Shown in pieces: positions 83 through 18,359 of a stretch of 64,000 bases of DNA. Under the pieces are notes generated by a model. That model was not told where the DNA came from. It did not search any database and saw only the letters and a list, made by a program, of their open reading frames with translations. Position 1 is the stretch's first letter; each line of letters opens with the position of its first letter. This DNA comes from Bacillota bacterium. GTDB taxonomy: Bacteria > Bacillota > DTU025. The translations under genes were made by a program, and so were the position numbers. Location: the NCBI GenBank assembly GCA_019136685.1, contig JAGVTS010000124.1, positions 17,460-81,459 of the forward strand. The letters are read 5' to 3'.

Positions 83-544
83 ATGGAACACGGCTGCGCC
101 GCGTACTTGGCCCCTGTCATGCTGGGGGGCATGGATTACGACAAACACTCATGGGTTGCGCAGATACAAGGCTGGCTGGCATCCCTTCCCGGCGACTCTC
201 AGCTACCGGCAGGGGCATTCTGCGAGTTGATGCGCGAAGCTTTTGAGGCTGACAGAGCTGGGATGTACCTGAAAAGCCTCTCGATTCTCAGCAAGGCTGA
301 GCGACTCCTGGCCGATTGCGACGCGCTCGATTCCTTCGTCTACGCGATGGGGGGCACTCCGCGCAGGATTCCGACTGATCCCGGCGGCGGCCCGCGGAAC
401 ACGCAACCCGGCCCCACCGGGGGAGGCGGCACGAGCTCGGGTAACCCGTGCGACTCCATGAATGATGATACGTGTTCGCAGTGTATCGGCGGCTTGTGCC
501 TTTACGGCATTCTGAATGCAATATGCGGAGGCGGGTGCTCATAA
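83..544 (+). CDS. hypothetical small protein (153 aa) with Gly-rich linker and Cys-rich hydrophobic C-terminal tail
   Basis: Complete ORF with ATG at 83, in-frame stop at 77-79 and GGAGG about 14 nt upstream. C-terminus reads ...GGGPRNTQPGPTGGGGTSSGNPCDSMNDDTCSQCIGGLCLYGILNAICGGGCS, holding 7 of the protein's 11 Cys in the last ~35 aa. First gene of a co-directional coupled operon. No family recognised. Confidence 0.45.
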   Translation: MEHGCAAYLAPVMLGGMDYDKHSWVAQIQGWLASLPGDSQLPAGAFCELMREAFEADRAGMYLKSLSILSKAERLLADCDALDSFVYAMGGTPRRIPTDPGGGPRNTQPGPTGGGGTSSGNPCDSMNDDTCSQCIGGLCLYGILNAICGGGCS

Positions 545-571
545 GCCGGTCTGGCCCTGCCGCCAATTTCC

Positions 572-1225
572 ATGGGAAGGAGAATCGTTGTGGAGTTGCC
601 CGATCCGGTCCCGATCACGCAGGATTTCGATGAACCCATGCACGTGCCCGAGCCCGAATCCGACCCAGGCCAGGATGCCTGCAGCGCAGGCACTACCGCG
701 GACATTGGCGCCGTCCAAAGCAAACTGGACCAGCTCATCGCCATGTTCGCCGACAAGATCCAGTACGATGACCAGAAGGAAAAGGCCTTCGCCAGGCTGT
801 ATGATGAACTCGACTCTTTCAAGCGTGACTTTGTGGAGCGCCGGATGAAAGAGGCCTACACCGATCTGATTCTGCTTTACGACAACATTAAGAACTATAC
901 CGGCGACGACGACGTTATGAGGGAAGAAGGCGCTCTCGCGCGAAGGTACCTTGGCTATGTAATGGAAGAACTCACCGAGGTGCTGGCACGGCGTGGGATA
1001 GAACCCATTGTTGCGGGCCCAGGCGTGGGCCCGGCGCAGTGCGGTTTTGATCCGCAGCTTCAGCGAGCCATACGCACGGTGCCCGCCGAATGCCACGGCG
1101 AGGATGGATGCGTGGTCCGCGTGGTGAAGGACGGGTTTACAAAGGACGGTAAGGTGTTCCGCCCACAATCGGTGATCGTGGCACGCTGGACGGAGCCTCC
1201 GAGCCCTCGAGGAGGCGATGTGTAG
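572..1225 (+). CDS. GrpE-like nucleotide exchange factor
   Basis: C-terminal region matches GrpE architecture: dimerisation helix (YLGYVMEELTEVLARRGIEPI), FDPQLQRA (GrpE FDPxxHxA) and beta-domain VVRVVKDGFTKDGKVFRPQSVIVA (GrpE V..V.Q.GY....RPA.V.V). Stop TAG overlaps the GTG start of the next gene (taGTG). Alternative start GTG at 590 follows GGAAGGAG. Confidence 0.65.
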   Translation: MGRRIVVELPDPVPITQDFDEPMHVPEPESDPGQDACSAGTTADIGAVQSKLDQLIAMFADKIQYDDQKEKAFARLYDELDSFKRDFVERRMKEAYTDLILLYDNIKNYTGDDDVMREEGALARRYLGYVMEELTEVLARRGIEPIVAGPGVGPAQCGFDPQLQRAIRTVPAECHGEDGCVVRVVKDGFTKDGKVFRPQSVIVARWTEPPSPRGGDV

Positions 1226-2757
1226 TGTCTCGTGCAATTGGAATCGATCTTGGCACTACGTTTTCGGCTATCGCTGTGCTCAACGAGTTTGGGAAGGCCG
1301 AGATAATCCCGAACGCGGAAGGAGAGCGCGTCACTCCATCTGTTGCGTACTTCGGCGACGATGACTCTGTGGTGGTCGGTACAGTCGCCAAGAATTCTGC
1401 CGTGAGCGATCCGTACAATGTGGTAGAGTTCATCAAACGGCAGATGGGCAATGCCGACTACGTGTTCACCCACGGCGATGCCGAATACGGCCCGGAACAG
1501 ATTTCGGCGCTCATACTCAAGAAGCTCAAGCAAGACGCTGAAAGGCTGCTCGGCGAGGCGGTCAACGATGCGGTGATCACGGTGCCAGCCTACTTCGACG
1601 ATGCACGCAGGCGCGCCACGATAAACGCGGGCAAGATAGCCGGCCTTAACGTGCTCCGCATAATCAATGAGCCCACGGCGGCGGCTTTGGCCTACGGGCT
1701 TACCAATGCGTCAGAGCAGCGGATAATGGTATATGACCTGGGAGGCGGCACGTTCGACGTGACCGTCATGGACGTGGCCAGAGGCGAGATCACGGTCGTC
1801 GCCACTGACGGCGACCACATGCTGGGCGGCAATGACTTCGACGACCAGATAATGCTCTACGTGAACGATGCCTTCAAACGGGAACACGGAGTCGACCTAC
1901 TTCGGGAGGTGGAGGTCCAGCAAGATCTGCGTCAGCGCGCGGAGGCAGCCAAGAAGACGCTGTCTTCTCGTCCATCGGCCAAGATCAGCATGAGCGCCTC
2001 CGGTAGGCGGCTGACGGTCGAACTTACGCGGGAGCAATTCGAACAGATGACCGGTCACCTTCTCGAGCGCACCAAGATGCTTGTCGAGTCGGTGATGAGC
2101 GAGGCCAAAACGGGATGGGGCCAGGTTGACACCGTGCTCTTGGTGGGAGGATCCACGCGCATGCCCATGGTGCCCCAGATGATCGAGCGCATGTCGGGCA
2201 GGGCCCCGAGCCGGGCCATCAACCCCGACGAGGCCGTGGCCATGGGCGCAGCGGTGCAGGCCGGCATCCTCATGGCCCAGAAGGGCGACGCCGCGATACT
2301 TGCTACCGCTGAAGGGCGCAGGCTTGCCAATACTCGAGTGACTGATGTGACGAGCCACGCTTTTGGGATCGTGTTGATGGATGATCGTACGAAAACCGAA
2401 TACAACCAGGTGATGATCGCCAAGAACACGCCGATTCCCCACGAGGTGCATGACCATTTCTATACGATTTCCAACAACCAGGAGCGCGTCAGGTTCGTAG
2501 TGCTTCAGGGGCAGGACCGCGATCCGGCCAACTGCAATACCATCGGCGAGACTGAACTCGAGTTCGACAGGCCCAAACCCAGGGGCTATCCTGTGCGGGT
2601 GACGTACCAGTATGACGCCAACATGGTGATGCACTGCTATATGGAGGATGAAAAGACCGGTCGCATTGCCGAGTTACATATTTCGCAGTCCGGCAGGATG
2701 AGCGACCGCGAAGTTGAGGCCAAGAAGCGGCTCATGGACCGGGTAAAGGTAGACTGA
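1225..2757 (+). CDS. Hsp70-family ATPase, lid-less paralog A (nucleotide-binding domain plus beta substrate-binding domain only, 510 aa)
   Basis: Hsp70 signatures present: IDLGTTFSA, ITVPAYFDD, NEPTAAALAYG, DLGGGTFDV, LLVGGSTRMP, NPDEAVAMGAA, plus SBD-beta motifs IAKNTPIP and PRGYPVRVTYQYDAN. Ends where the alpha-helical lid would begin; no EEVD tail. Translationally coupled to upstream GrpE-like gene. Confidence 0.8.
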   Translation: MSRAIGIDLGTTFSAIAVLNEFGKAEIIPNAEGERVTPSVAYFGDDDSVVVGTVAKNSAVSDPYNVVEFIKRQMGNADYVFTHGDAEYGPEQISALILKKLKQDAERLLGEAVNDAVITVPAYFDDARRRATINAGKIAGLNVLRIINEPTAAALAYGLTNASEQRIMVYDLGGGTFDVTVMDVARGEITVVATDGDHMLGGNDFDDQIMLYVNDAFKREHGVDLLREVEVQQDLRQRAEAAKKTLSSRPSAKISMSASGRRLTVELTREQFEQMTGHLLERTKMLVESVMSEAKTGWGQVDTVLLVGGSTRMPMVPQMIERMSGRAPSRAINPDEAVAMGAAVQAGILMAQKGDAAILATAEGRRLANTRVTDVTSHAFGIVLMDDRTKTEYNQVMIAKNTPIPHEVHDHFYTISNNQERVRFVVLQGQDRDPANCNTIGETELEFDRPKPRGYPVRVTYQYDANMVMHCYMEDEKTGRIAELHISQSGRMSDREVEAKKRLMDRVKVD

Positions 2758-2780
2758 TCAGGGGAGCAGAGGAGCGGGAG

Positions 2781-3488
2781 ATGGCAAAGGGCGCTATACA
2801 CAGAGTCTGGGCCGACTACGACGTGACTTACGGCGGGCGTCGGGGCATCATGATTCACGCCTCAATGGCAGTTACCGAACGCAGAAGAGCTCAGTCGGAG
2901 CAGGTACTAGTGATCTACTGGTTCTACTACACCGACGGCAAGCCGGTGCCCGGCGTTTCCAGCGAATTCACCGATAGCGGCGGGAACGCCTGCGCCTATG
3001 AGAGTGTTGATACTCCATATCCATCTACAGGCTACGATGATTTCTCGGTGTTCGTTCCCTATGAGGCGCTGAGCCATCAAGGGTCCGGGTCGTTCAGCGC
3101 GTATGCCAACGCAGCCTTGTTCGAAGGCGACACCGTCATAGCCTGGGCGCCTAGGGTGCTGTCGTTCACGTTGACTATGCAGGACGTTCATGAGCACGAG
3201 AAGGGCGGGCAAACGGGGCCCCAACGCACAACCAGGACCACCACTACTACGACTAGCCCGGATACGGGCGGCTCACGCGGTTTCGGCGGCCAGTCGCCTG
3301 CACAAAGATACCGTCGGATGTTCGGCATACCGCCCGGCGCAAGCCCGGCTCAGATCAAGCAGATTTTGGACCGCGAGTATCAGAAGTACAGAGCGCGGGT
3401 GAATAGCCCTGACCTTTCGGCCAGGCAGGAGGCTGACCGAATGATTGTGGAGATAGGCAAGGCCCGGCAGGCGTTGCTGCCGCACTAG
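2781..3488 (+). CDS. hypothetical protein with C-terminal J-domain-like region (SPD in place of HPD)
   Basis: RBS GGAGCGGGAG lies before the ATG. C-terminal ~60 aa (RYRRMFGIPPGASPAQIKQILDREYQKYRARVNSPDLSARQEADRMIVEIGKARQALL) aligns by eye to the J-domain helix II - loop - helix III pattern, with SPD at the HPD position. N-terminal ~140 aa is an unrecognised domain, followed by a Thr-rich linker (RTTRTTTTTTSPD). Lies between two Hsp70 paralogs. Confidence 0.5.
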   Translation: MAKGAIHRVWADYDVTYGGRRGIMIHASMAVTERRRAQSEQVLVIYWFYYTDGKPVPGVSSEFTDSGGNACAYESVDTPYPSTGYDDFSVFVPYEALSHQGSGSFSAYANAALFEGDTVIAWAPRVLSFTLTMQDVHEHEKGGQTGPQRTTRTTTTTTSPDTGGSRGFGGQSPAQRYRRMFGIPPGASPAQIKQILDREYQKYRARVNSPDLSARQEADRMIVEIGKARQALLPH

Positions 3489-3505
3489 AAGGGGGAGGCG
3501 GACCC

Positions 3506-5038
3506 ATGAAGGCAGTTGGAATCGACCTTGGCACTACGTTTTCGGCTTTGGCTGTGCTGAACGATTATGGCAATCCCGAAATCGTGCCGAACAGGGAGGG
3601 CGAGCGCATCACGCCGTCGGTGGCGCTGTTCGATGCGGAGAACCAGGTCACTGTGGGGGCGATTGCCAAGAACACCGCGGTAAGCGATCCGGAGAACGTG
3701 GTCGAGTTCATCAAGAGGCAGATGGGCAACCCGGACTTCGTTTTCGTCCACAGCGGCAGGGAGTTCCGCCCGGAAGACATCTCTGCGATGATCATCAAAA
3801 AGCTGAAGGCCGATGCCGAGACGCTTCTCGGCGCCGAGCTTCCCAGCGCAGTAATAACAGTGCCGGCCTATTTCGACGACGCCCGCAGGCAGGCTACCAT
3901 GAATGCGGGAAGAATCGCTGGGTTCAACGTGCTCGGGATAGTGAACGAACCTACAGCGGCGGCGCTGGCCTACGGCATGAGCAACCCCGATGTTCGTCAG
4001 CGGATCCTCGTGTACGACTTGGGCGGCGGCACCTTCGACGTGACGCTTATGGAAGTGACGGAGGGCAAGATCCGCGTGCTTGCCACCGACGGCGACCATC
4101 AGCTGGGCGGCAAGGACTTTGACGACAAGATAATCATGTACTGCAACGACGAGTTCAAGCGCGAGCACGGCATCGACCTTCTTGACGACCTTGAGGCTCT
4201 GCAGGACTTGCGCCAGCGGGCCGAGTCGGCCAAGAAGACTCTCTCGTCCAGAGACTCAGCCAAGATCACCATAAGCGCCCAGGGAGCGAGGCTCACTGTA
4301 GAGATGGCCCGCAAGCAGTTCGAGGAGATGACCGCAGAGTTGCTTGTACGTTCGGAAATGCTCCTGGATGCGGTGATGGGGGCGGCGGAACTAGGGTGGG
4401 CCGATGTCGATCAGGTGCTCCTGGTCGGGGGCATGACTCGCATGCCGGCGGTTATGGAGATGATTCGCAGGGTGAGCGGTAAGGAGCCCACTCTATCAGT
4501 CAACCCAGACGAAGCAATCGCCCTGGGGGCAGCCATATATGCCGGCATCATACTGGCCGGTCGGGGCGATCCTGAGGTGGTATTGAGCGAAGCAGGGCGC
4601 CGGCTGCGCGATACCGTAATCGAGGACGTCACGAGCCACAGCTACGGTGTGCTGCTTGTCGACTCCAAAACAGGGAGCGACATCAATGAGATAATGATCG
4701 CCAAGAACTCCCCCATCCCGGCCGCGCGGACCGCCACGTACTACGTACATGAAGATGGGCAATCGTGCGTGGAACTCGTGGTGCTGCAGGGCGAAGATAG
4801 AAACCCGGCCAACTGCAATGAGATCGGCAGGGTGGTGTTGCCGCTCGGCGGCTCGAAACCCCGCAATTACCCCATAGAAGTAACCTACGAGTACGACGTC
4901 AACATGATAATGCATGCGACCATCAAGGATCCGCAGACGGGGGCCCAAAAGTCGCTCCAGATTACGCAGCAAGGACGGCTGACCAACGCAGAGGTTGAGG
5001 AAAAGCGGGAGACCATGCAAGAAGTCGAGGTAGTTTAA
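3506..5038 (+). CDS. Hsp70-family ATPase, lid-less paralog B (510 aa)
   Basis: Same length as and colinear with paralog A, roughly two-thirds identical by eye. Same Hsp70 motifs: IDLGTTFSA, DLGGGTFDV, LLVGGMTRMP, NPDEAIALGAA, IAKNSPIP, PRNYPIEVTYEYDVN. RBS GGGGGAGG upstream. Stop TAA overlaps the ATG of the next gene (TAATG). Confidence 0.8.
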   Translation: MKAVGIDLGTTFSALAVLNDYGNPEIVPNREGERITPSVALFDAENQVTVGAIAKNTAVSDPENVVEFIKRQMGNPDFVFVHSGREFRPEDISAMIIKKLKADAETLLGAELPSAVITVPAYFDDARRQATMNAGRIAGFNVLGIVNEPTAAALAYGMSNPDVRQRILVYDLGGGTFDVTLMEVTEGKIRVLATDGDHQLGGKDFDDKIIMYCNDEFKREHGIDLLDDLEALQDLRQRAESAKKTLSSRDSAKITISAQGARLTVEMARKQFEEMTAELLVRSEMLLDAVMGAAELGWADVDQVLLVGGMTRMPAVMEMIRRVSGKEPTLSVNPDEAIALGAAIYAGIILAGRGDPEVVLSEAGRRLRDTVIEDVTSHSYGVLLVDSKTGSDINEIMIAKNSPIPAARTATYYVHEDGQSCVELVVLQGEDRNPANCNEIGRVVLPLGGSKPRNYPIEVTYEYDVNMIMHATIKDPQTGAQKSLQITQQGRLTNAEVEEKRETMQEVEVV

Positions 5039-6183
5039 TGGAGGCAGGGGCAGGGACGGAGCGGGGCGCACGTACCCGGGCGCTTTACGAGCAACTGCTG
5101 GCGCCCGTGGCCCGGCAAGTCGACGCGGAACTGACGAATGAAGGGCACAACCTTCCGGCTGAACTGCGCGACATGTACGACTACGCTGTCGGCGGCGGTA
5201 TGAGATTCAGGCCGTGCCTGATGTACCTGGCGTACCTTGTGTGTAGTGCGGGCATGGGCGGGGAGTGCGGGCGTGATGGAGGCGATGGCTGCGGCAGCTG
5301 CATTGGCCTCGATAACCTGATTCAGCTTGCGTCAGCTGTGGAGTTGCTCCACAAAGCGTCGTTGGTTCACGACGACCTCATCGACGGCGACACTCTTCGC
5401 AGGGGGCGGCAGTCGTTTCACGAGGCATTCGGGAGCGAGCGCGCCGTAGTAATGGGTGACTTGCTAGTGGCAATGGCTCACGATGTGGTTGAGCGGATGC
5501 GTTCGGTCTTGCCGACCGGAGTGTACTCCCAAATCCGCTCCCGGTTCAACAAGGCCCATATCGACCTGTGCCGAGGTGAGTTGCTGGAGTTGGTCGCTTC
5601 GCTTTGCGAGCGCGCTCTGGCACGCGATTACGTGGATAGGGTGATCGAAGGAAAGACCGCGTCGCTGATGGAGCAGTCGATGGCCATGGGGGCGATCATC
5701 GCGGGCGCGCCCGCGGCTCGTGTGGATGCCTTGGCACGCTACGGACGGTGCATGGGGTTCGTGTTCCAGACTATCAATGATATAAACAACCTGACAGGGT
5801 TCGACCTAGGCGTCAAGGGGCAGGCCATGACAGACCTGGCGCTGGGCCGTGTGGGATACCCTGTTCTGGGCCTTGCGATGATCGCGGGCGCTGAAGAGAC
5901 TGGCCTCTTTGCACGGGCCCCGGGGATTAGGCGAGTTGAGGGCTCGGGCGACGCCCTGCGTGAGCTGGTTCAGGGGGGGCAGCTGTGCGTGTGGCTCGAG
6001 GGGATAATATGCGAATATGCGGGCCGAGCGCGACAGGCGCTGGAGGCCCTGCCGGAATGTGGCGCGCGCGACGCCCTGGACGCGATAGGACGCGAGATGT
6101 TCGAATCGTGGTTCTGGAATCCCGAAGCGCGCGTCGATAGCCTGGGAGGCGGATGCAGTGAAGAGTCTCCGCCCGCTAACTGA
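5038..6183 (+). CDS. polyprenyl synthetase (trans-isoprenyl diphosphate synthase) family protein with degenerate second Asp-rich motif
   Basis: GGGMRFRP (IPPS GGKRxRP), intact first Asp-rich motif LVHDDLIDGDTLRRGRQ, GKTASL. Second motif reads FQTINDINNL where FQxxDDxxD is expected. Cys/Gly-rich insertion (GGECGRDGGDGCGSCIG) before the first motif. Coupled to the upstream Hsp70 gene. Confidence 0.65.
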   Translation: MEAGAGTERGARTRALYEQLLAPVARQVDAELTNEGHNLPAELRDMYDYAVGGGMRFRPCLMYLAYLVCSAGMGGECGRDGGDGCGSCIGLDNLIQLASAVELLHKASLVHDDLIDGDTLRRGRQSFHEAFGSERAVVMGDLLVAMAHDVVERMRSVLPTGVYSQIRSRFNKAHIDLCRGELLELVASLCERALARDYVDRVIEGKTASLMEQSMAMGAIIAGAPAARVDALARYGRCMGFVFQTINDINNLTGFDLGVKGQAMTDLALGRVGYPVLGLAMIAGAEETGLFARAPGIRRVEGSGDALRELVQGGQLCVWLEGIICEYAGRARQALEALPECGARDALDAIGREMFESWFWNPEARVDSLGGGCSEESPPAN

Positions 6184-6760
6184 GTCGGCCCTTGCCGCGG
6201 CTGTGTGTGTAGTTGTGTGGGCGCTGTCACTGGGTATTCCGGGGCTGGGGGGCTATGTGAGATACATGACGCCGAGCTTTATCGCGATCGTGGGAGCGCG
6301 CCACGGAGCGAGATGGTCGCTGGCGGCGTGCGCAGTGGCGAGCGCCGGTGTAGCGATCACGCTGGGGCCGACCCAGTTCCTCATCTGCCTCCTTCTGGGC
6401 GCCCCCATGGCGGTGCTTCTTCCCATGATGAACCGGCGCGCCAAGCCTGCGCCCTGGTGGGCGCTGACGTCAGTCATCTACGCCGTGGCCGTTACAGTTC
6501 TGGGCTGCGGGTTGGCCGCGCTCTACGGTGCAGGACTTCGCGACTATGGGTCGGCGACTGCGTCAGCCAACTACGCTGCTTTGGGCGGCATGTGGGCTCG
6601 GCTAGGCGTGGAGCGGAGCGAGCTTGCCGCGTTCGCCGGCCGATCAGCGTGGGTCATCGTCCCGGGAGTCGGCGTCGTCAGCGGAGTCATGATGTACATG
6701 ATCAACGTAGTACCGTATAGAATCGGCCTCAGAACCCTCGACCGGACGCGCCGCCGGTAG
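6158..6760 (+). CDS. polytopic membrane protein, unknown function
   Basis: 200 aa, about 5 predicted hydrophobic helices, basic C-terminus. Overlaps the end of the preceding gene by 26 nt in another frame. Last gene of the co-directional block. Confidence 0.4.
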   Translation: MKSLRPLTESALAAAVCVVVWALSLGIPGLGGYVRYMTPSFIAIVGARHGARWSLAACAVASAGVAITLGPTQFLICLLLGAPMAVLLPMMNRRAKPAPWWALTSVIYAVAVTVLGCGLAALYGAGLRDYGSATASANYAALGGMWARLGVERSELAAFAGRSAWVIVPGVGVVSGVMMYMINVVPYRIGLRTLDRTRRR

Positions 6761-7238
6761 CGCCGGCCCTTGCGCCTCCGGCGGTCGCAGCCTGTGCAAA
6801 TGCCGATAGATCCACATCGGCAGATGATATCCGCACCATGGCTTGTCCAGGCTGAATAGTTATCCCCGCCATGTCCAGCGACCTTAGCGCCCCGCGGCTT
6901 GCCTGAACGAGATCGATCGTTATCACGCCGCGACCCAGGTAGCTTACGCCCTGGGGCAGGCGCGAGGAGATCCGGTTGATGAGCACATCCATAGGACCGG
7001 TTCCCAGCCCCATCGGACCGGATACACGCACTGTCAGGCTGGCGCCGCGCGCGGCGACCACCTCTACTCGGAAAGACGGATGAATGGGCACAGGCGCGCG
7101 GACGGTAGTGTCGACAACCACTACCCCTTGTTCGAATCTCAGACCCCTCACAACGAACTCGGGAGACGATGCAACGCTGGCCACGACCTGCTTCACTTCC
7201 CGATCGTCCACAGCAAGCACCAGCGACTCCATTAGCAT
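6729..7238 (-). CDS. hypothetical protein (possible PilZ-like beta-barrel protein)
   Basis: 169-aa ORF with reasonable protein-like composition. Weak resemblance to PilZ/YcgR-type domains (RxxxR ... D.S..G-like spacing). Not confidently assigned. Confidence 0.35.
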   Translation of the reverse strand: MLMESLVLAVDDREVKQVVASVASSPEFVVRGLRFEQGVVVVDTTVRAPVPIHPSFRVEVVAARGASLTVRVSGPMGLGTGPMDVLINRISSRLPQGVSYLGRGVITIDLVQASRGALRSLDMAGITIQPGQAMVRISSADVDLSAFAQAATAGGARAGATGGASGRGF

Positions 7239-7245
7239 CTCAAGC

Positions 7246-8250
7246 TCACTCCTTTCGGGTTCTCGCGCTCAGCAGGCGCCTTACCCGGGCGTCCAGCCCG
7301 AGCAGGATGATGTTCTCTACTATGGGGCGATAGCGGTGCAGCGTCAGCTGCGACAACGCGTTGCGCGCTTCCACATTGCATCGGGCGATCACGTACGACA
7401 GGGCATCTCCCGTGCCGCGCGAGAGCTCAGCGGAATCTTGTTCTGCCATCATGCAGGCGCGCAGGCCGTTAAAAGCCCCGCGTCTCACGTCGCGCGGTAA
7501 GTCCTCCAGGCAGTCGCCTAGATAGACCATGCGACCCACGGCTCGGCCCAGGCGCGCCAAGGATACACAACCCTCATCCAGGCCGGCCAGAATGCCTGTG
7601 TACGCCAACACGTGCGCAAGCCCGTCGGCCGTGGGCGCGGTGAGTTCGTCGAACGTGATACTTCCCGGCGCGGCGCTTGCCTCAGCTTCCAGCTCGGCCA
7701 GGCGATCGTCTGCCTGCAGCAGCGGGGCGATATCGAAAGAGCGCTCAGCGAGAACATGCCGGGCCTTGGCAAACTGTCGGCGGCCCATGGCTCTGGCCGG
7801 GCGGGCTAGGAGCGATCCGTCGCGCACCGAGTCCAGGCTCTTCAGTTCTGCCATGCACACTGTGAGCGCAGCGCCCAGCGACATGAAGTCCTCATGCTCA
7901 CTGATAATGGCGAACCTGCGGAATGCCGACACAGGGCAGAAAGTCCTCCGAAAAGACGGGTCGGGGTCTGCCTGAGCCGACATGAGCAGGACTAGCAAAG
8001 TAGACTCGAAATTGGTGAGCGCGCGGCAGAGTGTGCCGTACTCCCGTGCAAGCGCGAAACAAAGCCCACAGTAGTGGGCTGTGTAGTGATGGCTTTGCCT
8101 GAGTGTAAGGTCGAGCTTCTGAGGCCTTACATATCCAAACAACCGGGCACTCTCCCGCCGACGTGATCTGCTTCCCATCGAGAGTTTTCTCCCTGCCGAC
8201 CGCTTGTTCCTCCATAGTCGGCGGGATCCGGATGATAGAGCAAGAAGCAC
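7246..8250 (-). CDS. hypothetical protein with conserved Y-V-R-P ... HHYxxHYCGLC motif
   Basis: 334-aa ORF with N-terminal FGYVRPQKLDLTLRQSHHYTAHYCGLCFAL Cys/His motif, and a C-terminal region rich in regulatory-looking helices. Family not confidently recognised. Confidence 0.45.
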   Translation of the reverse strand: MLLALSSGSRRLWRNKRSAGRKLSMGSRSRRRESARLFGYVRPQKLDLTLRQSHHYTAHYCGLCFALAREYGTLCRALTNFESTLLVLLMSAQADPDPSFRRTFCPVSAFRRFAIISEHEDFMSLGAALTVCMAELKSLDSVRDGSLLARPARAMGRRQFAKARHVLAERSFDIAPLLQADDRLAELEAEASAAPGSITFDELTAPTADGLAHVLAYTGILAGLDEGCVSLARLGRAVGRMVYLGDCLEDLPRDVRRGAFNGLRACMMAEQDSAELSRGTGDALSYVIARCNVEARNALSQLTLHRYRPIVENIILLGLDARVRRLLSARTRKE

Positions 8251-15650: not shown

Positions 15651-16885
15651 GCAAAGACAAGATTGTCATCCGAGGTGCGCGCGAGCACAACCTCAAGAAT
15701 ATCGATGTGGAGATTCCCCGCGACAAGCTGGTGGTAGTGACCGGCCTGTCGGGTTCGGGCAAGTCGTCGCTTGCCTTCGATACGATATATGCGGAGGGGC
15801 AGCGGCGCTACGTGGAATCGCTGTCAGCCTATGCGCGTCAGTTTCTGGGCCAGATGAACAAGCCGGACGTGGATTACATAGAGGGCTTGTCTCCTGCGAT
15901 CTCCATAGACCAAAAAGCGGCCGGCAGAAACCCGCGGTCCACCGTGGCCACGGTCACTGAGGTTTACGACTACATGAGGCTGCTGTACGCCCGAATAGGG
16001 GTACCTCACTGCCCCGAGTGCGGTCGCGAGATCACCCAGCAATCGGTAGATCAAATCGTCGACAGGATCATGGACATGCCGGAGGCGACACGCATTCAGG
16101 TATTGGGCCCGGTTGTCCGTGGTAAGAAGGGCGAGCACAAGAAGGTTCTCGACGATCTCAGGCGCGATGGGTTCGCTCGTGTACGGGTCAACGGAGAGGC
16201 ACGCGAACTCACCGACCAGATTGACCTGGAGCGCTACAAGACCCACAGCATAGAGGCTATTGTGGATAGGCTGATCGTAAGGCCCGGCATACAGCGCAGG
16301 TTGGCTGATTCGCTGGAAACGGCCTTGAAACTCGGAGGCGGCCTGGTACTGGTAGACGTGGTTGGCAGCGGCGATATCGTCTTTTCGGAGACGCTGGCCT
16401 GCCCTGACTGCGGGCTCAGTTTCGGGGAGTTGCAGCCCAGGCTGTTCTCGTTCAACAGCCCGTACGGCGCGTGCCCGGCCTGCTCAGGCTTGGGCGTGAG
16501 CATTGAGTTCGACCCGGAGCTGATCTTCGATGCCGGCCGCTCCATTGACGACGGCGCTGTCTTGCCCTACAACCGAAACGGGGTCATAGCCGACTTCTAT
16601 GTCGGCCGGATACGTGAAGTGTCCCGGGTGAAGGGGATAGATACCACGGCCCCCTGGTCGTCGTTGCCTGAATGTGCCCGCGAGATGCTGAAACACGGGT
16701 GCGGAGAGGAACGGCGCGCGGCTAAAGCCGGAAGCGCTCGCCGTGACAGTTGGCGGGAAATCCATTGCCGAAGTCACCTCGATGTCCACGGCGGATGCTC
16801 TGGCCTACTTCGAGGGCTTCAGCCGGCAGCTTACAGAACGCGAAACGCTCATAGCCAAGCAAGTCTTGAAGGAAATTCGGGCTAG
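15647..16885 (+). CDS. uvrA: excinuclease ABC subunit A, N-terminal portion (gene disrupted by frameshift/deletion)
   Basis: [14 protein letters not shown] Walker A, Zn-finger CPECG...CPDCG...CPAC, LPYNRNG. UvrA identity is lost after ...LKHGCGEE around 16710 and the frame runs into non-UvrA sequence. Confidence 0.8.
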
Positions 16886-18359
16886 GTTAGGCTTTCTCAG
16901 TAACGTTGGGCTGGACTACCTCACCCTTGACCGTGAGGCGGGAACCTTGTCGGGCGGCGAGGCTCAGCGGATCAGGCTGGCCACCCAGATCGGGTCGAGC
17001 CTGGTAGGAGTGCTCTACATTCTGGACGAGCCGTCTATCGGGCTGCACCAGCGCGACAATGCACGATTGATCGCTACGCTGAAAGACCTGCGCGACTTGG
17101 GTAACACGCTCATTGTAGTGGAGCACGACGAGGAGACTATCAGATCGGCTGACTATGTAATCGATATAGGTCCGGGCGCCGGCGCCCATGGCGGCGAAGT
17201 GATCGCCGCCGGCACTGTCGGCGAAGTTGAGAGGAATCCGGCTTCCCTGACAGGGCAGTATCTTTCAGGCGCTCGAAGCATCCCTGTGCCGCCGGCGCGA
17301 AGAGAGCCCAACGGGAAGTCGCTGGTGATAGTGGGCGCTCGCGAGCATAACCTCAAGAACCTGGATGTGTCGATACCTCTGGGGTTGTTCGTGTGTGTGA
17401 CGGGCGTTTCCGGATCCGGGAAGAGCACTTTGATCAACGAGATACTCCACGCGCGGCTGGCGCGCGACCTGAACCGGGCGTATGCCAGGCCCGGCGCGCA
17501 CGACGACATACGGGGCACTGAGTACCTCGACAAGGTGATCGGCATCGACCAGTCGCCGATAGGGCGGACGCCAAGGTCCAACCCGGCCACCTACACCGGC
17601 GTGTTCGACTTCATCAGAGAGGTATTCGCGCGAACGACCGAGGCCAGGGCAAAAGGCTATAAGCCCGGCAGGTTCAGTTTCAACGTCAAGGGCGGCCGAT
17701 GTGAGGCGTGCCGAGGCGACGGCATTATCAAGATAGAGATGCATTTCCTACCCGACGTGTACGTTCCGTGCGAGGTGTGCAGGGGCGCACGGTACAACAG
17801 AGAGACCTTGGACGTGAAGTACAAGTCCAAGAGCATTGCAGACGTGCTTGCCATGAAGGTCGACGAGGCACTGGAATTCTTCTACAACATCCCGAGGATC
17901 CGGCGTAAGCTGCAGACTCTCTATGACGTCGGTCTCGGCTATATCCAGCTGGGCCAGCCGGCTACGACTCTCTCAGGGGGCGAAGCCCAGCGCGTGAAAC
18001 TCGCCACAGAGCTGTCGCGGCGCACCAATGGAAAGACACTGTATATACTGGATGAGCCCACTACTGGGCTGCACTTCGCGGACGTCGGTAAGCTCTTGGA
18101 GGTACTGCAGAAACTGGTAGACGGCGGCGATACCGTGCTGGTGATCGAGCACAATCTGGATGTCATCAAAACTGCTGACTACATCATAGACCTTGGCCCT
18201 GAAGGCGGCGACAAGGGCGGATGCTTGATCGCCGCGGGCACTCCGGAGCAAGTCGCAGCCACGCCCGGATCATACACCGGGCAATTCCTGACTAGGATTC
18301 TGCCGACTGAGGTGAAATCCGAGCACGGGCTGGAGGCGATGACCGGTGCCCTTGGATGA
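16743..18359 (+). CDS. uvrA: excinuclease ABC subunit A, C-terminal portion (continues in a different frame)
   Basis: [12 protein letters not shown]..., [17 protein letters not shown], second Walker [11 protein letters not shown], Zn-finger CEACRGDG...CEVCRGARY, second ABC signature [12 protein letters not shown]. Frame differs from the N-terminal part. Confidence 0.8.

Follow-up and report, generated by a model that had tools for sequence, protein, structure and literature searches.

Does a tandem pair of bacterial Hsp70 genes whose products end before the lid encode spare copies of a chaperone or two parts of a specialized machine? The question is raised by a window of 64,000 nucleotides from a Bacillota bacterium (GTDB lineage Bacteria; Bacillota; DTU025; GenBank assembly GCA_019136685.1, contig JAGVTS010000124.1, forward-strand positions 17,460 to 81,459), by which we mean the whole stretch of DNA that was analyzed. 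It carries two such genes, here called Hsp70A and Hsp70B, at 1225-5038, on either side of a gene for a J-like protein (Table 1). Judged from its residues, relatives, and partner genes, the pair looks like a specialized two-chaperone machine rather than a set of spare copies.

Hsp70A starts with GTG and Hsp70B with ATG, each encodes 510 amino acids (aa), and an end-to-end alignment has 307 of 508 positions identical (60%; 78% positives, one gap), which bears out a preliminary description of this DNA as carrying two colinear and highly similar Hsp70s of that length, exactly where it placed them. The Pfam HSP70 profile (PF00012) matches Hsp70A and Hsp70B with E values of 6e-143 and 7e-141, far above the gathering score, and is covered over positions 1-509 and up to 516, respectively, of 599; the NCBIfam DnaK models are covered over positions 1-507 and 1-508 of 625. 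The scores against those models (PRK00290 and TIGR02350) are 490.4 and 481.5 for Hsp70A, against cut-offs of 648 and 822.55, and 476.9 and 474.6 for Hsp70B, likewise below them. The NCBIfam HscA cut-offs are not reached either (371 versus 620 and 367 versus 708.55), and there are no isc genes near the pair. The best relative among solved structures is the DnaK of Geobacillus (2V7Y; E value, 3e-109).

Alignment with DnaK, HscA, and HscC of Escherichia coli places both C termini near DnaK residue 526. Each protein consists of a nucleotide-binding domain (NBD), a linker, SBD-beta (the beta-sandwich part of the substrate-binding domain, SBD), and helix A, without helices B-E and the C-terminal tail; this agrees with the description of both proteins as keeping the NBD motifs and SBD-beta and ending where the lid begins. 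Residues D8, G10, T11, T12, K70, E171, D194, G197, G198, T199, and D201 (DnaK numbering) are present in both copies, and the residues for ATP binding and hydrolysis are conserved in every orthologue of A, B, and the single-copy Hsp70s described below that was aligned. The linker region contains an insertion of ~14 residues, reading DAAIL...NTRVTD in Hsp70A and DPEVV...DTVIED in Hsp70B, and the VLLLD of DnaK is not conserved.

The truncation had been argued from the outset not to come from a frameshift, and this proved right: the genes downstream are coupled, with the GrpE stop and the Hsp70A start overlapping as TAGTG and the Hsp70B stop and the next start as TAATG, Shine-Dalgarno-like GGAGG sequences lie upstream of starts in the cluster, and beyond each Hsp70 stop no lid-like sequence can be read in any of the three frames. 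The homologues are equally short, since 118 of the 120 closest (45-95% identity), in Bacillota (Thermoactinomyces, Staphylospora, Lihuaxuella, and a Bacillus species), Microcystis, and Cloacimonas, measure 495-530 aa. Because lid frames are lacking and nearly all of the nearest homologues are of this length, a frameshift artifact is excluded.

Hsp70A and Hsp70B are in fact members of a large clade of ~500-530-aa Hsp70s that stands apart from DnaK and HscA and apparently from HscC. In an exhaustive profile search that returned 12,491 Hsp70 representatives at E<=1e-30 (50%-identity representatives), 79 of the best 150 were 480-560 aa long, and the remainder of these 150 mostly carried other C-terminal domains (e.g., vWA) or were double-Hsp70 fusions. 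With one genome scanned per species, Planctomycetota, cyanobacteria, Chloroflexi, and other phyla yielded relatives that are 41-48% identical. Neighbor-joining trees (200 bootstraps, from a biased sample in which HscC was represented by one sequence) recovered the DnaK clade in 187/200 replicates and the lid-less/variant clade without HscC in 150/200, which favors the distinct lid-less clade that had been looked for; E. coli HscC was the nearest named outgroup, joining the lid-less clade in 110/200. Features shared across the clade in the alignment are a deletion matching DnaK 76-101, a 5-residue insertion in L1,2, and the ~14-residue insertion beside the interdomain linker. Both copies also have the phosphate-loop sequence GIDLGTTFSA. 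That the TTFSA is common to the two was correct, although it is not special to them: TT[F/Y], giving TT[F/Y]S instead of TTNS, occurs in 210 of the 256 clade members examined, and TTFSA is therefore a signature of the clade rather than a property of the pair. Eukaryotic cytosolic Hsp70s normally have a tyrosine here.

Several relatives hold two Hsp70-type units in one polypeptide (P0137 and P0191, of ~865 aa, and P0138, P0140, P0150, P0269, and P0273); in P0137 and P0191 an NBD-like unit is joined to a lid-less Hsp70. These double-Hsp70 polypeptides may be Rosetta-stone fusions or gene-calling artifacts.

The closest named comparison is HscC (YbeW of E. coli), likewise a specialized, non-housekeeping bacterial Hsp70, which shares with the window Hsp70s the NBD deletion at DnaK 76-101 and an L1,2 insertion (4-8 residues) in SBD-beta. 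It works with dedicated J-proteins encoded nearby (DjlB/DjlC), much as the window pair has a J-like gene alongside. HscC proteins have 550-580 aa and a shortened lid and are thought not to use GrpE (Mayer 2021, PMC8215388). Unlike HscC, which has TTNS and that shortened lid, the window Hsp70s have 510 aa, no lid, TTFS, the ~14-residue insertion on the linker side, and a GrpE of their own. With the canonical DnaK-DnaJ-GrpE system they share the NBD/SBD-beta fold, the catalytic residues, and the presence of a GrpE and a J-type partner; they differ in having no lid or tail, no conserved VLLL linker, an Asn at D481, and scores below the NCBIfam cut-offs. As a further contrast with a dnaK operon, the J partner belongs to neither class A nor class B of DnaJ, and the window has no CIRCE (controlling inverted repeat of chaperone expression) element.

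Open reading frames (ORFs) were called in all fetched loci, which were then searched with the window proteins. The same gene set was present in ~30 loci (L009, L014-L023, L097-L121, and L143) from uncultured Bacillota/Clostridia metagenome-assembled genomes and from metagenome contigs, of which two bear the title fermentation metagenome; the Hsp70 cluster is thus conserved and translationally coupled in one uncultured Bacillota/Clostridia lineage. The plus strand carries the genes for the Cys-tail protein, GrpE, Hsp70A, the J-like protein, Hsp70B, a polyprenyl-synthase-like protein, and DUF2232, in that order; the minus strand carries those for a 169-aa protein and for DUF5685. The observation that the tandem pair brackets the J-like gene holds, and yet the unit is larger than was first described, as it takes in the GrpE, Cys-tail, polyprenyl-synthase-like, DUF2232, and DUF5685 genes.

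Six of the clusters (L020, L022, L110, L112, L113, and L120) have a single Hsp70 (60-64% identity) with the same partner genes, in the order GrpE, Hsp70, Cys-tail, J-like, polyprenyl-synthase-like, and DUF2232, mostly also with DUF5685. As these sister clusters carry one Hsp70, the pair arose within the Bacillota lineage; the cluster core is one Hsp70 system with its partners, and the second Hsp70 is a lineage-specific addition. The A clade, the B clade, and the grouping of A, B, and single-copy genes were each recovered in 200/200 bootstraps.

An independent tandem pair of short Hsp70s occurs in Microcystis (L007), where a GrpE is followed by Hsp70s of 525 and 508 aa and a DnaJ-TPR protein. 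Its neighbors are an nSTAND/NACHT-TPR gene pair, a TraG/VirD4-like ATPase, and a giant EAD4-WD40 protein, a conflict-system-like setting unlike that of the window. The members of this pair are sisters to each other in 0/200 bootstraps and not orthologous to A or B, so Hsp70 pairs arose more than once.

For Hsp70A and for Hsp70B there are separate sets of orthologues, 72-96% identical within A and within B (window versus L009: 72.0% for A and 76.1% for B), and the ratios of nonsynonymous to synonymous substitution rates (dN/dS) between the window and L015, 0.075 (A) and 0.061 (B), place both copies under strong purifying selection. At 26 positions, some of them in the substrate cleft, the residue is fixed within A and fixed within B and differs between them. 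The suggestion that the copies are not redundant is sustained by these orthologue identities, low dN/dS values, and fixed differences. Because the single-copy Hsp70s carry the A state at most of the 26 positions, B looks like the derived copy.

Conserved differences between the paralogues in the substrate-binding cleft, which the preliminary description had singled out as worth a check, were found there and also, unexpectedly, at the site where the J-domain docks. In the DnaK-DnaJ complex, D35 of DnaJ forms hydrogen bonds with R167 and Q378 of DnaK, H33 contacts the backbone of L391, and P34 contacts P419 (Mayer 2021, PMC8215388). At position 167, copy A and the single-copy genes have R or K, and 8/8 B orthologues have G or A; at position 378, the former two have Q, and 8/8 B orthologues have Y. 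In the substrate-binding region, the arch residue A429 is H in 7/8 B orthologues (D in L023) and I, V, or S in A; M404 is G in 7/8 (R in L023) and variable in A; F426 is Y in 7/8 (C in L023) and F in A; and T437 is E in 8/8. By alignment with DnaK, then, Hsp70B has replaced both of the predicted hydrogen-bonding partners of the J-domain Asp, and its conserved substrate arch and pocket are unlike those of Hsp70A.

The partners that would act on such a pair are encoded beside it. The GrpE gene is kept in every cluster. Its product reaches 38.5 bits against Pfam GrpE (PF01025; gathering score, 25.8) and falls far below the cut-offs of the NCBIfam GrpE equivalog models; since the Pfam threshold is passed and all of the equivalog cut-offs are missed by far, we classify it from its sequence as a divergent GrpE. 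Its true start may lie further downstream, given the variable N terminus. In the J-like protein, an N-terminal beta-sandwich (residues ~1-133) is followed by a linker rich in Thr and Gly and by a minimal J-like domain of three helices (residues ~173-232). In an AlphaFold2 model the J helices have a predicted local distance difference test score (pLDDT) of 75-91, and the beta-domain has a pLDDT of 45-72 (low confidence). The protein has no Pfam match at E<=0.01, hence none to the DnaJ domain PF00226; NCBI calls one homologue a "J domain-containing protein". The tripeptide of the J-like domain is SPD in the window, L014, L015, and L021, NPD in L020, and SAD in L022, and HPD is kept in the J-like proteins of the sister subclade (L009, L016-L019, and L023). 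The Pro, the Asp, and the basic helix II residues R22 and K26 are retained.

D477 of DnaK is the salt-bridge partner of K48 of the J-domain. The residue aligned with D477 covaries with the J motif (compared with L009, L016, L018, and L023), being Q in A and E in B in the SPD subclade and E in A and K in B in the HPD subclade, except in L023.

The beta-sandwich of the J-like protein is without a Pfam family, and a Foldseek search with it returned only generic Ig-like/CBM-like sandwiches. The domain recurs at the C terminus of TIR, Ser/Thr kinase, BACON, and Tectonin proteins (L122-L137; examples in Table 1). This pattern, which is typical of a ligand- or target-binding domain, suggests that it is a mobile binding or sensor module.

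The other members of the cluster are not chaperones. The Cys-tail protein has a helical N-domain, the conserved motif R-P-[AT]-D-P-G, a linker rich in Pro and Gly, and a C terminus that is hydrophobic and Cys-rich (CSQCIGGLCLYGILNAICGGGCS), and it matches no Pfam or NCBIfam family. C134, C139, and C148 are invariant, and the dN/dS is 0.23. Its gene lies upstream of GrpE in two-Hsp70 clusters and between the Hsp70 and J-like genes in single-Hsp70 clusters. The polyprenyl-synthase-like protein scores below the cut-offs of all NCBIfam models; its first Asp-rich motif, HDDLIDGD, is intact, and its second reads NDxNN instead of DDxxD in 10/10 cluster members aligned. In the window subclade only, this protein has a Gly/Cys-rich insertion (residues ~71-90) and a GGGCSEE-type C-terminal extension. 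The DUF2232 gene is conserved across clusters. Its relative YybS has been proposed to be an ECF (energy-coupling factor) transporter S-subunit tied to cell-wall homeostasis, with links to lipid II and cell-wall phenotypes, and yybS of Bacillus subtilis shares an operon with gdpP, a phosphodiesterase gene (bioRxiv 10.64898/2026.05.13.724699). The 157-173-aa protein is encoded in all two-Hsp70 clusters that reach its position; it was not detected in single-Hsp70 clusters and has no Pfam or NCBIfam match.

DUF5685 supplies a link to J-proteins elsewhere. Its gene is conserved in the clusters and probably starts near 8142, as homologues begin with MFGY, and its product has an invariant CxxC...C and Asp-rich motifs. 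The AlphaFold2 model (pLDDT, 92.5) is all-helical, and all of its Foldseek matches are trans-prenyl diphosphate synthases and the prenyltransferase MoeN5 (E value, ~1e-4; template modeling score, 0.5-0.64), so that DUF5685 is predicted from its model to have an isoprenoid-synthase-like fold. Among 24 relatives identified by a word-index search were five independent noncluster loci of Firmicute type, and in 5/5 of these a J-protein gene follows DUF5685, mostly with overlapping stop and start codons. The J-proteins concerned combine a J-domain that has the canonical HPD with a linker rich in Gly and Tyr, a helical region resembling TPRs, and, at the extreme C terminus, a hydrophobic string rich in Cys (e.g., ...LCGGGCR or ...CCGGRICFC). 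The Cys-tail protein of the cluster, which ends in ...ICGGGCS (a CGG-x-C motif), resembles them without the J-domain. DUF5685, a J-protein, and a Cys-rich tail thus make up a recurring trio, which the lineage of the window seems to have supplemented with Hsp70 and GrpE genes of its own. We did not find the DUF5685/J-protein pairing described in the literature searched.

A DUF5685 protein of Nocardia (P0305) bears a fused tail of CGCDGC repeats. In two loci, the DUF5685/J-protein pair lies just downstream of cdaA-cdaR. GdpP is a cyclic di-AMP (c-di-AMP) phosphodiesterase, and a link of the cluster to the cell envelope or to c-di-AMP is possible, given the yybS-gdpP operon and the position of DUF5685 beside cdaA.

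Table 1. Positions of the Hsp70 cluster, its neighbors in the window, and related features in other loci
Feature	Position	Strand	Remarks
Cys-tail protein, ~137-153 aa	83..544	+	ORF, conserved in every cluster
Putative dedicated GrpE-like nucleotide exchange factor, 217 aa	572..1225	+	Pfam GrpE
Hsp70A, lid-less Hsp70	1225..2757	+	NBD, modified linker, SBD-beta, helix A; ancestral-like copy; R167 and Q378 kept
Putative J-like targeting protein, 235 aa	2781..3488	+	Between Hsp70A and Hsp70B
Hsp70B, apparently derived lid-less paralogue	3506..5038	+	ATPase residues intact; altered J-docking and arch residues
Polyprenyl-synthase-family protein	5038..6183	+	Pfam polyprenyl_synt (PF00348), 2e-42
DUF2232 (YybS-like) polytopic membrane protein	6158..6760	+	Pfam DUF2232, 36.1 bits versus 27.8
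Conserved 157-173-aa protein (169 aa in window)	6729..7238	-	Downstream of DUF5685
DUF5685 protein	7246..8250	-	Pfam DUF5685, 142.6 bits
LysM protein, 382 aa	8261-9409	-	
Split uvrA-like gene, 412 and 538 aa	15647-16885 and 16743-18359	+	Overlapping ORFs between uvrB and uvrC
DUF5685/J-protein pairs	L094:7403-8995; L096:3153-4678; L138:5200-6715 (L138/139); L141:1945-3455; L142:1863-3345		
J-like beta-domain in other proteins	L124:2394-3620; L126:1321-2766; L128:9479-10372; L130:9809-11509		
Microcystis short-Hsp70 pair and neighbors	L007:1301-17527		

The surrounding genes of the window are housekeeping genes (uvrABC, glmM, alr, tsaBDE, and pcrA-ligA-gatAB). Next to the cluster, and adjoining it only in the closest relatives (L014, L021, and L100), lies a gene for a 382-aa protein with a weak JAB/MPN-like N-domain, a transmembrane segment, Pro/Gln-rich repeats, and a C-terminal LysM domain. 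The split in the uvrA-like gene is either a frameshift or an assembly error. A scan for promoters and terminators in the window gave no more sites than shuffled sequence.

We consider it somewhat probable that the cluster encodes a client-dedicated two-chaperone module in which Hsp70A would be docked by the J-like protein and reset by GrpE and Hsp70B would be a J-independent partner, a function that we infer from the genes and their conservation. Hsp70A would serve as the motor, and the 235-aa protein as a targeting factor whose beta-sandwich binds a client or ligand while its J-like domain docks on Hsp70A. Hsp70B might contribute a second binding module, with a specificity of its own, or act as co-chaperone to Hsp70A. 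The absence of the lid would let both copies bind and release clients quickly, which favors a small dedicated client set over bulk refolding. The likeliest clients or partners would be the co-conserved DUF5685 protein, the polyprenyl-synthase-like enzyme, and the protein with the hydrophobic Cys-rich tail, and the DUF2232 membrane protein suggests that the module may act at or near the membrane.

A number of points weigh against this proposal. The clamp is altered across the cluster clade, with D481 replaced by N in all members and D326 variable, and the alignment of the linker is ambiguous, so the allosteric coupling of these Hsp70s may differ from that of DnaK. Because SPD replaces HPD in the J-like domain of the window, the J-driven step may not be canonical in this organism. 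Homology of the Cys-tail protein to the C-terminal halves of the J-proteins encoded with DUF5685 lacks statistical support (hhalign probability, 5.7%; pairwise E value, 0.0066). The direction of change in which B is derived comes from character states and not from the tree, where A groups with B in 64/200 bootstraps and with the single-copy genes in 72/200, and the sister-group relationship to HscC has a support of only 110/200 in neighbor-joining trees of a biased sample. The clients, any contact between A and B, and the ATPase behavior are predicted from the genes, and a gene neighborhood by itself cannot separate a client from a functional partner.

The main rival, which we regard as rather unlikely, is an obligate A-B heterodimer of the Hsp70/Hsp110 type or of the type seen in RAC, the ribosome-associated complex (Ssz1-zuotin-Ssb), in which Hsp70B would have ceased to cycle clients and would be a regulatory or exchange-factor-like subunit bound either to Hsp70A, at its NBD, or to the J-like protein. 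It sharpens the initial suggestion that the pair works as a heteromeric unit. It fits a Hsp70B that is without the J-docking residues and yet keeps those for nucleotide binding, the fixed and coupled order of A, J-like gene, and B, and the fused two-Hsp70 proteins among the relatives (P0137 and P0191), although the fusions found are of the NBD-only type and some are perhaps gene-calling artifacts. Truncated DnaK paralogues have been proposed to be Hsp110-like co-chaperones of DnaK (PMC13580251). Eukaryotic analogues are Ssz1/HSPA14 of the RAC, HSPA12, and Hsp110, paralogues without a lid or a J-domain interaction that work together with a J-protein and another Hsp70 (PMC13580251); the lost J-docking residues of Hsp70B recall them. 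The eukaryotic Ssz1/Hsp110-type proteins, however, have degenerate linkers or SBDs and are related only at the superfamily level, whereas Hsp70B keeps a conserved SBD-beta and the catalytic residues. The SBD-beta of Hsp70B is complete and strongly conserved and has its own fixed pocket residues, pointing to client binding, and with a dedicated GrpE present, a second exchange factor is not obviously needed.

A more elaborate idea, and one that we rate as quite improbable, concerns the tail. The DUF5685 protein might modify or load the Cys-rich tail of its J-protein partner, for example, by S-prenylation with the donor from the adjacent enzyme; the cluster would then be an elaborated version of what would be a widespread Firmicute module that has gone undescribed, with its own lid-less Hsp70 pair and GrpE, Hsp70A being J-driven and Hsp70B being a J-independent holder of the greasy tail or enzyme. 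Cysteine-string protein (DNAJC5) and farnesylated Ydj1/DNAJA are lipid-anchored J-proteins of eukaryotes. The DUF5685-linked J-proteins resemble DNAJC5 and Ydj1 in architecture only, having a J-domain and a C-terminal Cys-rich hydrophobic string and being encoded beside a prenyl-diphosphate-binding fold. In the window cluster such a tail is borne by a separate protein. DUF5685 is predicted to share its fold with prenyl diphosphate synthases and not with the eukaryotic protein prenyltransferases.

That the two Hsp70s are redundant or stress-backup chaperones, a recent tandem duplication that aids bulk folding beside a housekeeping DnaK, is very improbable and largely refuted by sequence. The intact ATPase motifs of both copies, the adjacent GrpE and J-like genes, which recall dnaK operons, and the housekeeping surroundings agree with such a role. 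On the other hand, the paralogues are only 60% identical, each with orthologues across the lineage and with conserved differences at functional sites; there is no lid and no class-A DnaJ, and the operon is fixed to non-chaperone genes in ~30 loci. No CIRCE element was found within 3 mismatches anywhere in the window, for which reason a Firmicute-type heat-shock operon was set aside.

We hold out even less for a component of a conflict or defense system in which Hsp70, GrpE, and the J-like protein would serve as an NTP-driven switch against invaders (compare Kaur et al. 2020). The idea draws on the Microcystis GrpE/Hsp70/Hsp70/DnaJ-TPR genes next to nSTAND/NACHT-TPR and EAD4-WD40 proteins, on the Hsp70 and GrpE themes in GTPase-centered conflict systems (Kaur et al., PMC7159879), and on the fusion of the J-like protein's beta-sandwich to TIR and kinase domains elsewhere. 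However, the Microcystis pair is not orthologous to A/B, PADLOC-DB 2.0 gave no match for the six proteins spanning 83 to 6180, and the Bacillota clusters contain no effector, STAND, GTPase, or EAD gene; the defense candidate was dropped on the PADLOC result and the missing effector genes. The lack of CIRCE, of PADLOC matches, and of defense genes and the housekeeping neighbors speak against a general heat-shock role and a defense role alike. Finally, the notion that the genes are a frameshift-broken full-length dnaK or an assembly duplication of one gene has practically no chance of being right: nothing was found in its favor, an identical Hsp70A protein occurs on 7 independent contigs (NCBI, ENA, and Logan assemblies), A and B have diverged by 40%, no downstream frame holds a lid, and hundreds of homologues share the same length.

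Lid-less bacterial Hsp70s sit in the databases as "Hsp70 family protein", and a standard review of prokaryotic Hsp70 types covers DnaK, HscA, and HscC only (PMC8215388); a study of DnaK paralogues in mSystems in 2024 treated full-length DnaKs only. The nearest described cases are the truncated DnaK paralogues of complex bacteria, functionally untested according to a 2026 review in FEBS J (PMC13580251), and the Hsp70 and GrpE conflict themes (Kaur et al. 2020, PMC7159879). Like the window genes, these encode DnaK derivatives that contain an NBD and are incomplete at the C terminus, and they often stand beside genes for a GrpE and J-proteins; unlike them, they come from Myxococcota, Actinobacteria, and cyanobacteria and have other partners (GTPases, tubulin, and FNIII-DnaJ), and the gene set of the window is not described there. 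Neither the cluster nor the asymmetry between A and B was found described in the literature that we searched on lid-less Hsp70s of bacteria, on DUF5685, and on Cys-string or prenylated J-proteins of bacteria.

This locus is informative in several respects. It is a natural experiment on the function of the Hsp70 lid, and it bears on the division of labor between two Hsp70s, one of which keeps the predicted J-docking site and the other of which has lost it. It also asks whether a J-like domain without the catalytic His still works. The fixed link to two proteins of predicted isoprenoid fold, a YybS-like membrane protein, and a Cys-string-like tail yields concrete candidate clients, which is rare for orphan chaperone paralogues, and the pairing of DUF5685 with a J-protein gene in other Firmicutes is a first functional lead for this uncharacterized Pfam family. 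If the tail-loading idea were true, the module would be a bacterial counterpart of the J-proteins that carry a lipid anchor, among them cysteine-string protein and farnesylated Ydj1.

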